A DNA stretch of 13,403 nucleotides from an uncultured Planctomycetota bacterium (GTDB lineage: Bacteria > Planctomycetota > JACQVV01 > CAZANL01): positions 1 through 13,403 of the forward strand of contig CAZMLI010000093.1 of NCBI GenBank assembly GCA_964566865.1, read 5' to 3'. Numbering within the stretch: the first letter of the stretch is position 1; every line of letters starts with the position of its first letter. Below, in pieces: positions 8,067-10,154 of the stretch. The notes under the pieces are model-generated. The model was not told the origin of the DNA, made no database searches, and saw only the letters and a program-made list of their open reading frames with translations. The position numbers and the translations under genes are program-made.

Positions 8067-10154
8067 ATGGACGACCTCGACCCGGCGCTGATCGAAGGAT
8101 TCGAGGAAAATCCCTGGTTGGCGCTCTACAAGGTCAGCTGCCTGCTCAACTCGCGCGCCGCGGTGGACCTGGACCGCACGCTCTGGACGATCCTCTCGGT
8201 GGTGCTCTCGCTGACCGGCGGCCAGCGCGCCTTGCTCTTGCTGCTCGACGACGACGGCAACCCGGACGTGCAGATGCACCGCAGCCTCCGCGGCGGCGAT
8301 CCGCGCCGGGACCAGCTGAGCAAGACCATCGTGCGCCAGGTGTTCGACAGCGGCGAGGCGCTGCTGGTGCCCGACATCCAGGCGGAGCCCGATCTGCGCT
8401 CGGCCCAGAGCGTGGGCGACCTGGCGATTCAATCCGCGCTCTGCGTCCCGCTCAAGACCGGCCTGTTCGAGGGCGCGGCCAGCGATGCGGAGCGGCGACG
8501 CTTTCCGCCCTATCTGGCGCTCTGGCAGGATGTGATCGGCGCGATCTACGTCGACAGCAACCAGACCCGCGCCCCCTACCTGCAGCAGGACATGGCGCTG
8601 CTCGAGGCGCTGGCCAACATCGCCGCCACCGCGATCAGCACGGCCCAGTTGCACAAGGAGGCCACGCGCGACAACGAGACGGGCATGCTGACGCGGCGCT
8701 ACTTCGAGCTGCTGCTGGACAAGGTGCACCGCCTGTCGGGCCGCTTCGACTTTCCTTACGGGCTGCTGCGCATCGACGTCGACGCCGCGGCCCCCGGCGG
8801 GGTCGAGGCCACCGGCCGGACGATCTCGGCGCTGCTGCGCGAGTCGGACCTGCCGGCCCGCTACGGCGCGCAGGCCTTCGCCATCCTGCTGCCCTACGCC
8901 GGCGAGCGCGAGGTGCGACTGGTCGCGGAGAAGATCCTCTCGCTGCTGGGCTCGGTCCGTCTGGGCGGCAGCGCGGCGCCCGGTCCCGCCGCCGACCCCG
9001 CCGAGCTGAAGCTGCAGGCCGATCATGCGCTGGCCTCGGCCGCACAGAGCGGGCGTGGCGCGTTCGTCTTCTGGTCGCCTGAGATCGGCACCAGCGGCCC
9101 GCGCGCGGATCGGCTGGCCGGCCTGGTCACCCGCAGCGAGGGGGCGGACCACCGCTCGCTCGAGCGGCTGGTGGACGAGAACGAACGGCTGCGGCAATCG
9201 CTCAAGGGCAAGGTCACCTTCCTGGGCGATAGCCGCGCGCTGCTCGAGGCGCTCGACCGCGTGCGCAAGTCGGCCCCCACCGACATCAGCGTGCTGATCC
9301 ACGGCGAGAGCGGCAGCGGCAAGGAGCTGATCGCGCGCGCCTTGCATGCGGCCAGTCCGCGGGCCGAGGGACCGTTCGTGGTGATCGACTGCGGCGCCAT
9401 CCCGGAAAACCTGGTCGAGAGCGAGCTGTTTGGCCACGAGGCCGGTGCCTTCACCGGCGCGACGCGCCAGCAGCGCGGCAAGTTCGAGCTGGCCGACGGC
9501 GGCACGCTGTTCCTCGACGAGATCGGCGAGCTGCCGCTGGCCGCGCAGGTCCGTTTCCTGCGCACCCTGCAGGAGCGGGAGATCCGGCGCCTGGGCAGCG
9601 CCGAGCCGATTCATGTCAACGTGCGCATCGTCGCCGCGACCCACCGCAACCTGGAGGCCGAGATCGCCGCCGGCCGCTTTCGGCAGGATCTGTTCTACCG
9701 GCTCAACCACATGCTGATCGAGCTGCCGCCGCTGCGCGAGCGCGGTCGCGACGCGCTGACGCTGGCCCGCTTCTTTCTCGATCAGTTCTGCCGTCAGCTC
9801 GACCGCCCCGTGCCACAGCTCGAAGCGGATGCGATCGAAGCGCTGCTGGCCCACGACTGGCCGGGCAACGTGCGCGAACTGGAACACTGCATCCAGCAGG
9901 CCGCAATCCTGGCCGAAGGCGAGCTGATCACCGCCGCCGACTTGCGGCTACCCAACGCACCGCCCTCCCCTGAACAGACCACCTTCAAGGCTGCCCGCCG
10001 ACGCGCGATCGACGCCTTCGAACGGGACTACATCCTGCGGCTGCTCGACCAGCACGAAGGCGACATCGACGCCTGCGCCGAACACATGGGGCTCTCCAAG
10101 CGCCGCTTCCGCGAACTGCGGCAGAAGCTCAACATCCGGCGCGAGAACGCGTGA
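8067..10154 (+). CDS. Sigma-54-dependent transcriptional activator (bEBP): N-terminal GAF domain, degenerate GGDEF domain with retained I-site, AAA+ sigma-54 interaction domain, C-terminal Fis-type HTH (about 695 aa)
   Basis: The track ORF starts at TTG 7980, but the first 29 codons are encoded by the GGCGGAAAAACCGCC repeats and are G/A-rich junk. I take ATG 8067 (MDDLDPALIEG) as the start, although there is no clear SD. GGDEF-like core (residues about 200-338): DNETGMLTRRYFELLL...LLRIDVD...RESDLPARYGAQAFAILLPYAG...ADHALASAAQSGRGAF. The GGEEF motif is replaced by GAQAF and the FK.IND..GH segment is missing. RxxD is positioned exactly as in WspR (RSSDLAARYGGEEFAMVLP). AAA+ motifs: Walker A GESGSGKE, GAFTGA, Walker B GGTLFLDEIGELP, FRQDLFYRLN. 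The HTH is ACAEHMGLSKRRFRELRQKL. The stop TGA at 10152-10154 overlaps the next start. Confidence 0.85.
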   Translation: MDDLDPALIEGFEENPWLALYKVSCLLNSRAAVDLDRTLWTILSVVLSLTGGQRALLLLLDDDGNPDVQMHRSLRGGDPRRDQLSKTIVRQVFDSGEALLVPDIQAEPDLRSAQSVGDLAIQSALCVPLKTGLFEGAASDAERRRFPPYLALWQDVIGAIYVDSNQTRAPYLQQDMALLEALANIAATAISTAQLHKEATRDNETGMLTRRYFELLLDKVHRLSGRFDFPYGLLRIDVDAAAPGGVEATGRTISALLRESDLPARYGAQAFAILLPYAGEREVRLVAEKILSLLGSVRLGGSAAPGPAADPAELKLQADHALASAAQSGRGAFVFWSPEIGTSGPRADRLAGLVTRSEGADHRSLERLVDENERLRQSLKGKVTFLGDSRALLEALDRVRKSAPTDISVLIHGESGSGKELIARALHAASPRAEGPFVVIDCGAIPENLVESELFGHEAGAFTGATRQQRGKFELADGGTLFLDEIGELPLAAQVRFLRTLQEREIRRLGSAEPIHVNVRIVAATHRNLEAEIAAGRFRQDLFYRLNHMLIELPPLRERGRDALTLARFFLDQFCRQLDRPVPQLEADAIEALLAHDWPGNVRELEHCIQQAAILAEGELITAADLRLPNAPPSPEQTTFKAARRRAIDAFERDYILRLLDQHEGDIDACAEHMGLSKRRFRELRQKLNIRRENA

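Follow-up and report, generated by a model that had tools for sequence, protein, structure and literature searches.

To our knowledge, all sigma-54 activators known to respond to c-di-GMP do so through AAA+ or REC sites, as in FleQ, FlrA and VpsR, and degenerate GGDEF domains serving as I-site receptors have been described only where the output is non-transcriptional, as in PelD and PopA. The three activators contain no GGDEF domain and bind the messenger on AAA+ or REC/AAA+ surfaces (PMC10333796, PMC7288161). They share with the protein described here an AAA+ output domain and, putatively, a Fis-type helix-turn-helix (HTH), and in them c-di-GMP controls ATPase activity and oligomerisation. 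PelD, a membrane protein, controls polysaccharide synthesis, and PopA, a REC-REC-GGDEF protein, acts in protease targeting; neither is fused to an AAA+ activator. In WspR and PleD, enzymatically active cyclases that have GGEEF and complete substrate sites, the I-site regulates the domain's own catalysis, and c-di-GMP cross-links the GGDEF domains and thereby fixes the oligomeric state. Activators of the NifA, NorR and FhlA type have an N-terminal GAF domain that controls a sigma-54 AAA+ domain, and none of them has a GGDEF domain in between.

The sigma-54 activator (bEBP) analyzed here is encoded on the forward strand (8067..10154) of a window of 13,403 nucleotides from an uncultured planctomycete, which is the whole stretch of DNA under study, and comprises 695 residues from the ATG at 8067. 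The mechanical ORF list begins the frame at TTG 7980; position 8067 corresponds to the residue where the orthologues P0007-P0010 begin. The domain order is GAF, GGDEF-like domain, coiled linker, AAA+ and HTH. The N-terminal GAF domain (residues about 26-195; 8142..8651, forward) is matched by Pfam GAF, GAF_2 and GAF_3 with E values of 1e-13 to 2.5e-8, and its last helix (173-200) runs into the start of the GGDEF-like domain in the AF2 model. The shortened, degenerate GGDEF domain (dGGDEF; residues 196-340; 8652..9086, forward) is followed by the conserved linker FWSPEIG...PRADRLAGLV and then by the helix HRSLERLVDENERLRQSLKG, which leads into the AAA+ domain (9069..9221, forward; AF2 helix prediction at 358-371). 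The sigma-54 AAA+ domain and its lid (9222..9950, forward; PF00158, E=3.4e-70; AAA_lid_14, E=6e-22) retain intact Walker A (GESGSGKE, 9303-9326), GAFTGA (9444-9461) and Walker B (TLFLDEIGE, 9504-9530) motifs, all on the forward strand. Pfam thus confirmed the GAF and AAA+ flanks of the architecture proposed in the initial annotation, and the proposed HTH_8 domain gave only a weak match (10059..10130, forward; 16.8 bits, with the cutoff at 22). This segment is a putative Fis-type HTH, typical of bEBPs in position and sequence. In FleQ-type bEBPs the c-di-GMP site on the AAA+ domain comprises LFRS, an R/N after Walker A and ExxxR; by eye, the probable counterpart of LFRS in the window protein reads KVTFLGDS and holds no Arg. 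The proposed c-di-GMP sensor of the window protein would be a separate inserted domain, unlike that of FleQ, FlrA and VpsR. No NCBIfam model reaches its own cutoff for the window protein, the best scores being those of NifA and NorR, well under their cutoffs.

Residues 196-340 are a true GGDEF homologue. The translation of 8664-9081 reads TRDNETGMLTRRYF...LLRIDVD...RESDLPARYGAQAF...QADHALASAAQSGRGAFVFWSP, and PF00990 exceeds its cutoff of 23.8 bits both with the full-length protein (26.5 bits) and with the segment taken alone (33.8 bits, E=3.4e-8); the match is partial because of deletions within the domain. A phmmer search against PDB sequences retrieved the GGDEF domain of WspR (E=4e-8), with RESD aligned on RSSD and GAQAF on GGEEF. 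WspR and PleD are the closest solved sequence relatives at this E value, and the RxxD motif, an arginine equivalent to R198 and the Lys/Arg of alpha3 all align with them. The AF2 model of residues 192-350 is confident (pLDDT 93.3, pTM 0.87), and each of its best 50 Foldseek matches in the PDB is a GGDEF domain (TM 0.7-0.83), the leading ones having TM scores of 0.75-0.82 and E values down to 1e-13. The GGDEF fold that had been read from the sequence for residues about 200-338 is therefore borne out by profile, homologue and model. PelD is similar to the window protein in having a GAF domain directly before its GGDEF domain. A PelD-like two-domain architecture was rejected, since PelD is absent from the best 50 Foldseek matches of the GAF-dGGDEF model, among which are the sensor-helix-GGDEF cyclases phytochrome-DGC, Dcsbis and DgcR.

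Judged from its residues, this domain is catalytically dead and cannot make c-di-GMP, as first proposed from the loss of the GGEEF motif. The GG(D/E)EF position is occupied by GAQAF (8865..8879, forward) and drifts to GSHAF, GARSF and GPRSL in the orthologues. An approximately placed 11-residue deletion after beta1 (IDVD; 8784..8789, forward) appears in gapped alignments with WspR, P0001, P0012 and 26 other GGDEF-bEBPs, in agreement with the substrate-binding segment that had been described as deleted; in the phmmer alignment the gaps against WspR sum to 12 residues and lie opposite YFKSYNDTFGHV. This deletion removes the FKxxNDxxGH helix carrying the guanine-binding Asn, and the column of PleD N335 is a gap in all four family members. 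A second deletion of about 11 residues eliminates the beta-hairpin after helix alpha3. The equivalent of PleD D344 is Pro in the window protein and Pro or Glu across the family, the phosphate-binding Lys (PleD K442) is replaced by Ala, and the equivalent of PleD R446 is kept, within the family, in the window protein only. Because of the deletion, GTP binding at the A-site is excluded, and a GTP sensor of the CC3396/PdeA kind was rejected for the window family on the loss of both the guanine-binding helix and K442.

In contrast to the active site, the inhibitory site is retained. The RESD motif (R258-D261; 8838..8849, forward) aligns with WspR R242xxD245 and is separated from GAQAF by five residues (LPARY), the spacing noted in the initial annotation and the one seen in PelD and PopA, which likewise combine a dead GGDEF domain with RxxD. 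Unlike these two, the window domain lacks both the alpha1 helix and the hairpin. RxxD is kept in 4/4 family members while GAQAF drifts, an invariance of weak statistical weight because the family comprises only four distinct sequences, all from Planctomycota MAGs. In alignment A5, R67 and D70 are among only 13 columns conserved at 90% or more. K289 (8931..8933, forward) occupies the I-site position of PleD R390 and does not vary within the family; WspR likewise carries Lys, and among 120 members of the wider class described below the position is Lys in 76 and Arg in 22. R226 (8742..8744, forward) aligns with WspR R198 in an ungapped phmmer stretch (query 35 on 3bre_A 198) and is Arg in three of the four family members and Glu in P0010. 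In WspR, R198 is the arginine supplied by a neighbouring GGDEF domain to complete the I-site, and the GGAAF variant still binds c-di-GMP through a site that needs R242 and R198 (PMC2270323). From these correspondences we infer that the dGGDEF domain probably binds c-di-GMP. The messenger would then probably switch sigma-54-dependent genes, because the dead domain keeps the messenger-binding pocket. The two deletions could distort the I-site, and conservation extends over the entire segment LRxSDLPARYG, whose role could be structural.

The loss of all catalytic residues, the two deletions, the Ala/Gly/Pro-rich loops and the partial Pfam match might also be expected of a functionless leftover of a cyclase domain. 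This reading is highly improbable, and a decaying pseudodomain was rejected: the dGGDEF domain is under purifying selection, with a dN/dS of 0.27 that is similar to those of the GAF (0.20) and AAA+ (0.21) domains, its identities to the orthologues (72%, 53% and 45%) are near those of the GAF domain, and its AF2 model is confident and compact. The window protein instead looks like a minimal derivative of the planctomycete GAF-GGDEF-GAF-AAA+ proteins. Three of these, P0127, P0133 and P0144, are uncharacterised and have the order GAF-GGDEF(GGEEF)-GAF-AAA+-HTH. An ancestor of this organization with GGEEF may have given rise to the window lineage through loss of the active site, the guanine-binding helix, the beta-hairpin and the second GAF domain, and the planctomycete series offers plausible steps, from an apparently active GGEEF through GGEAF (P0012) to the deleted minimal form.

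The GGDEF-AAA+ combination is widespread. In an exhaustive HMMER search, at least about 120 clusters (50% identity) spanning Gammaproteobacteria and Planctomycetota were found to have a GGDEF and a sigma-54 AAA+ domain in one protein. With just the GAF-dGGDEF half as query, a word-index search had returned only 6 matches and missed the family, which was recovered with a full-length query and an exhaustive profile search. The gammaproteobacterial members are about 1000 residues long and read X-dGGDEF(GGA[VI]F)-GAF-AAA+, for example WP_166167801.1 of Pseudomaricurvus alcaniphilus; they keep N335 and D344, so that a GTP-sensor reading is possible for them. The window family shares with the other GGDEF-bEBPs a homologous GGDEF domain with conserved RxxD, the W-x-P...DRLAG linker and the AAA+ domain, the DRLAG motif being common to all GGDEF-bEBP classes, and differs from them in the absence of a second GAF domain, the two GGDEF deletions and a length shorter by about 250-350 residues. 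Class members are annotated just as 'sigma 54-interacting transcriptional regulator' or 'diguanylate cyclase', and the four members tested fall short of every NCBIfam cutoff. No description of a GGDEF-containing bEBP was found in full-text literature searches or in two recent effector reviews. The initial annotation named no described bEBP of this architecture, and neither a literature account nor a curated family was found here; among known sequences, however, the combination is not unusual.

The class also provides evidence against a ligand-free relay, in which the dead GGDEF domain is a structural and dimerisation spacer transmitting the GAF signal to AAA+, with RxxD kept for folding or by inertia. 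Such a spacer would agree with the loss of every nucleotide-contacting A-site residue and with the trimming of the domain by two deletions. The linker, not the I-site, is the most constrained segment (91% identity and dN/dS 0.105 against the 77% orthologue), the predicted two-domain model resembles an ordinary sensor-helix-GGDEF scaffold, and the 13.4-kb window contains no other GGDEF gene and no EAL or PilZ gene. In known GGDEF structures, however, the I-site residues lie on the outside, and folding does not require them. In line with this, the R242A variant of WspR is stable and enzymatically active (PMC2270323). Among the 120 representatives, RxxD is kept in 105 (88%), compared with 44-57% across all GGDEF domains (PMC3974145), although the best-150 list was ranked by a profile containing RxxD, which introduces a slight bias. 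GG[DE]EF remains in only 12, the catalytic residues being lost in about 90%; R359 is kept in 107 and D362 in 106, whereas position 370 is acidic in only 20, and 99/120 combine a dead A-site with an intact RxxD. Furthermore, a GGDEF-domain gene adjoins the bEBP gene in all three gammaproteobacterial loci examined; beside the gene for WP_166167801.1 of P. alcaniphilus lies a Y_Y_Y-GGDEF gene. On this evidence we consider a ligand-free relay rather unlikely.

The same adjacent genes could also point to a different partner, with the dGGDEF domain or its I-site face binding an active GGDEF cyclase by heterodimer docking, a (p)ppGpp-like guanine nucleotide or the co-transcribed Ser/Thr kinase. The PDB holds PleD with c-di-GMP plus ppGpp or pppGpp (9g85, 9g86). 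Translational coupling of the bEBP gene to a kinase-TPR gene is seen in the window and in the P0008 and P0009 loci examined, and most of the nearest GAF-bEBP relatives have FHA domains, which read phospho-threonine. In the window, this kinase gene is a Ser/Thr kinase-TPR remnant (10151..11221, forward) at the place where, in orthologous loci, a full gene of this kind overlaps the end of the bEBP gene, and only its residues 1-138 and last 100 or so align with the 1016-residue orthologue; the bEBP is nevertheless intact and constrained. As noted, the deletion excludes GTP from the A-site, and the canonical motif for c-di-GMP is RxxD. The characterised degenerate-GGDEF receptors that have it, PelD and PopA, all bind c-di-GMP (PMC10333796). 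A different partner is accordingly improbable in our estimate.

The retention of RxxD in the family and the class, purifying selection and the neighbouring GGDEF genes together make the receptor reading plausible at the level of sequence. We therefore favor, at about even confidence, a former diguanylate-cyclase domain that has lost catalysis and been kept as a regulatory module, most likely a c-di-GMP sensor at R258/D261 with K289 and R226. Just short of even confidence, we extend this to a large unrecognised class of sigma-54 activators that would read c-di-GMP through a dead-GGDEF I-site receptor, a third modular mode besides those of FleQ and VpsR, with the window protein as its most reduced form, controlling a secreted peptidoglycan amidase. 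If the dGGDEF domain binds c-di-GMP, a cyclase's inhibition by its own product would have been turned into a transferable sensor serving a transcription motor, and more than 100 uncharacterised regulators, some of them in cultured Gammaproteobacteria, would become predictable c-di-GMP effectors.

In the mechanism we propose for such a receptor, the GAF-dGGDEF halves would dimerise via the long GAF-to-GGDEF helix, as in GAF-GGDEF cyclases, and an intercalated c-di-GMP dimer would bridge two dGGDEF I-sites, as in product-inhibited WspR and PleD. The bridging may shift the register of the DRLAG/coiled-coil linker, and this register would decide whether the AAA+ domains can separate from the dimer and assemble into the ATPase ring, which remodels the sigma-54 holoenzyme. 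We lean weakly towards c-di-GMP locking the dimer and thereby switching the activator off.

The likely target of the activator, as far as the intergenic sequence indicates, is the divergent gene for an Amidase_2 and SH3 peptidoglycan amidase (6876..7882, reverse; PF01510, E=4e-37), which has a ribosome-binding site and an ATG and encodes a hydrophobic, signal-peptide-like N-terminus. A sigma-54-like -24/-12 element, GGGCACGccaaTTGCT (7917..7932, reverse), lies 35 nt upstream of the amidase ATG with one mismatch to TGGCAC-N5-TTGC; alone it is at chance level, with 1.24 such matches expected in the window. At the homologous place in locus L003, GGGCAC-N5-TTGTT is the sole match, with 0.01 expected. 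Two exact GGCGGAAAAACCGCC dyads (7998-8012 and 8030-8044), the only two matches in the window against 0.01 expected, form a candidate enhancer (UAS); they are spaced 32 bp centre to centre and lie 86 and 118 bp upstream of the -12 element. A search around the paralogues P0009 and P0010 found neither sigma-54 promoters nor GGCGG dyads. The loci of the 77% orthologue conserve both the -24/-12 element and the dyads, two copies of GGCGGAAAAAGCGCC lying 31 bp apart at the same place, and the divergent amidase arrangement is conserved in the P0008 loci. The probable output of the activator would thus be the divergent secreted amidase, and the proposed circuit would link c-di-GMP to a planctomycete peptidoglycan amidase.

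The sigma-54 enhancer-binding activator (bEBP) is encoded by the ORF at 7980-10154 (+). Its start was placed at the Met codon at 8067, as in the orthologues, which gives 695 residues and agrees with the residue numbers of the initial annotation. Pfam analysis of the whole protein identified GAF (E=1e-13), Sigma54_activat (E=3.4e-70), AAA_lid_14 and a weakly matching HTH_8, and the Walker A, GAFTGA and Walker B motifs of the AAA+ domain are all intact. The Pfam GGDEF match is partial in the whole protein (26.5 bits; cutoff 23.8) and rises to 33.8 bits (E=3.4e-8) when the segment is searched in isolation. 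The initial annotation had placed a degenerate GGDEF domain at 8664-9081; all of its quoted motifs were recovered from the translation, with RESD at 8838-8849, and Pfam, the WspR alignment and AlphaFold2 with Foldseek agree in confirming the domain. The phmmer search of PDB sequences matched the WspR GGDEF domain at E=4e-8, pairing RESDLPARYGAQAF with RSSDLAARYGGEEF of WspR and leaving gaps totalling 12 residues opposite WspR YFKSYNDTFGHV. Alignments with relatives outside the family (the window protein and its orthologues P0007-P0010) show the same deletion, here of 11 residues, and another, also of ~11 residues, that follows helix alpha3. The AlphaFold2 model of residues 192-350 (pLDDT 93.3, pTM 0.87) has the secondary-structure order of a GGDEF domain minus helix alpha1, and each of its best 50 PDB matches in Foldseek is a GGDEF domain (E down to 1.4e-13, TM 0.7-0.83). 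The GAF-GGDEF half was also modeled confidently (pLDDT 84, pTM 0.75); in this model the last GAF helix (173-200) runs on to where the GGDEF-like domain begins, the same lead-in as in dimeric sensor-GGDEF cyclases.

A canonical GGEEF protein served as the bridge for placing the family on PleD numbering. At the catalytic site (A-site), the N335 position is deleted, D344 is replaced by Pro or Glu, K442 is lost, and R446 is retained in the window protein only. GGEEF is replaced by GAQAF, GSHAF, GARSF or GPRSL in the four distinct members, and P0009 and P0010 lack the first metal-binding Asp. At the inhibitory site (I-site), PleD R359 and D362 correspond to window R258 and D261, which are invariant in the family; at the R390 position all members have Lys, the residue also found in WspR, and window R226 aligns with WspR R198. 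In WspR, c-di-GMP is held at the I-site by R242 and R198, and a GGAAF mutant retains c-di-GMP binding (PMC2270323). Judged by these residues, the domain is non-catalytic and keeps its I-site motif. Between the window gene and its 77% orthologue P0008, dN/dS is 0.27 for the degenerate GGDEF domain, 0.20 for GAF, 0.21 for AAA+, 0.29 for the C-terminus and 0.105 for the post-GGDEF linker, and identities domain by domain give the same picture. The value of 0.27 and these identities argue against the domain being a relic, a disfavored alternative.

The family is very small, comprising the window protein, P0007 (99%), P0008 (77%), and P0009 (58%) and P0010 (55%), two paralogues within one groundwater Planctomycetota MAG. 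Only two of 185,579 GTDB species representatives carry it, both Planctomycetota MAGs. A profile of the degenerate domain, linker and Walker A was run exhaustively with HMMER against 1.84 billion representatives, and domains were called on the best 150 matches and spot-checked with Pfam. Around 120 of these 150 carry a sigma-54 AAA+ domain C-terminal to a GGDEF domain. Some are planctomycete GAF-GGDEF-GAF-AAA+-HTH proteins, 850-1050 aa long, in which GGEEF or GGDEF is often intact (P0127, P0133, P0144); P0012 has GGEAF. Others are gammaproteobacterial X-GGDEF(GGA[VI]F)-GAF-AAA+ proteins, ~950-1040 aa long, found for example in Methylothermaceae, Thiolapillus and the cultured Pseudomaricurvus alcaniphilus (WP_166167801.1). 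The GGDEF module is homologous across all classes, since in each of them it is followed by a W-x-P...D(R/K)L(A/S)G linker, and the window family seems to be a planctomycete version from which the second GAF domain has gone. Four further relatives, P0001 (605 aa), P0227, P0264 and P0269, are GAF-GGDEF(GGEEF)-GAF proteins without AAA+; their DRLAG...DYRN linker is that of the bEBP fusions, so the sensor-cyclase cassette also occurs on its own, and the fusions probably arose when it joined a GAF-AAA+ activator. P0222 (777 aa) has the reverse order, REC-AAA+(sigma-54)-HTH-PAS-GGDEF with intact GGEEF; such a bEBP might also make c-di-GMP.

Among 120 representatives of these GGDEF plus sigma-54 AAA+ proteins, 99 combine a degenerate A-site with an intact RxxD, six have both sites intact, six the A-site only and nine neither. 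RxxD is thus retained in 88% and the catalytic acidic residue in 17%; RxxD occurs in 44-57% of GGDEF domains at large (PMC3974145). In an alignment of 30 sequences, just 13 columns are conserved at 90% or more, and the R and D of RxxD are two of them. The activator gene adjoins GGDEF-domain genes in all three gammaproteobacterial loci examined (L010 4829-12478, L011 4766-14370 and L009 6609-11024). There, activators of ~1000 aa (degenerate GGDEF-GAF-AAA+) stand in the layout TonB receptor - HDOD - activator - (GGDEF-EAL) - Y_Y_Y/Reg_prop-GGDEF, or beside a stand-alone GGDEF gene; two of the three are HDOD - activator - (GGDEF-EAL) - Y_Y_Y-GGDEF clusters. These clusters look like dedicated local c-di-GMP modules. 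RxxD retention, A-site loss and GGDEF neighbors form the pattern that would be expected if a dead domain were kept for c-di-GMP binding. In the MAG with P0009, a gene for a PilZ (weak match)-HATPase_c_2 protein adjoins a STAS-domain gene (L001 19205-19970), which hints at c-di-GMP signaling in this planctomycete lineage.

In the bEBP, a GAF sensor and a complete sigma-54 AAA+ motor flank a GGDEF fold that is under constraint and non-catalytic and whose I-site motif is intact. We infer that (c-di-GMP)2 could bridge two such domains via R258, D261, K289 and R226'. The resulting shift of the DRLAG and coiled-coil linker, which is highly conserved, would gate AAA+ ring assembly; a dimer locked with the activator off at high c-di-GMP is weakly favored. 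Alternatively, the domain could be a ligand-free relay. According to effector reviews, FleQ, FlrA and VpsR bind c-di-GMP at AAA+/REC, and PelD and PopA are I-site receptors; the site proposed here is an I-site on a separate domain. Full-text literature searches and recent c-di-GMP effector reviews yielded no bEBP with a GGDEF domain, and no NCBIfam model covers the window protein or sampled class members. Both ingredients are known, and their combination is abundant in databases and undescribed in the literature. The architecture is thus not unusual, contrary to the initial annotation; its description as undescribed and mechanistically new stands, with putative binding.

Upstream, across a 184-bp intergenic region, a divergent gene encodes an Amidase_2-SH3 protein whose N-terminus resembles a signal peptide. 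A sigma-54-like element, GGGCACGccaaTTGCT (GGGCACG-N4-TTGCT; 7932-7917, (-)), lies 35 nt before the amidase ATG; taken alone, this match is at chance level. Two exact GGCGGAAAAACCGCC dyads (7998-8012 and 8030-8044), 32 bp apart and 86 and 118 bp from the -12 element, are the sole copies in the window against 0.01 expected. The dyads and -24/-12 element recur at matching positions in the 77% orthologue's loci despite diverged flanks; comparable dyads or a sigma-54 promoter were not found around P0009 and P0010. Such a geometry is typical of an NtrC-type enhancer with a sigma-54 promoter, and the amidase gene is probably the output of the bEBP. The dyads also lie 23-69 bp ahead of the bEBP start codon, making autoregulation possible. 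Between them and the -24 element, a perfect 9-bp inverted repeat, CAAGTCATT-N7-AATGACTTG (7950-7974, (-)), whose palindromy is absent in orthologous loci, might form a hairpin or serve as a site for an IHF-like or different factor.

In the P0008 and P0009 loci, a Ser/Thr kinase-TPR gene follows the bEBP gene with overlapping stop and start codons. The degenerate GGDEF domain might bind another ligand or a protein partner, such a co-transcribed kinase included. In the window, the gene overlapping the bEBP stop codon (10151-11221, (+)) is a deletion remnant: only residues 1-138 and the last ~100 of the 1016-aa orthologue align, and ~770 residues, among them the greater part of the kinase domain, are absent, through either a real deletion or an assembly artefact. 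The same gene is divided into two ORFs in locus L005. Two further large genes encode a Ser/Thr kinase-HEAT (2642..51, (-)) and a Ser/Thr kinase-TPR protein (2259-5294, (+)); their mechanical ORFs, with predicted starts only, overlap by ~380 nt at the 5' ends. Kinase genes are abundant in the P0009 and P0010 loci too.
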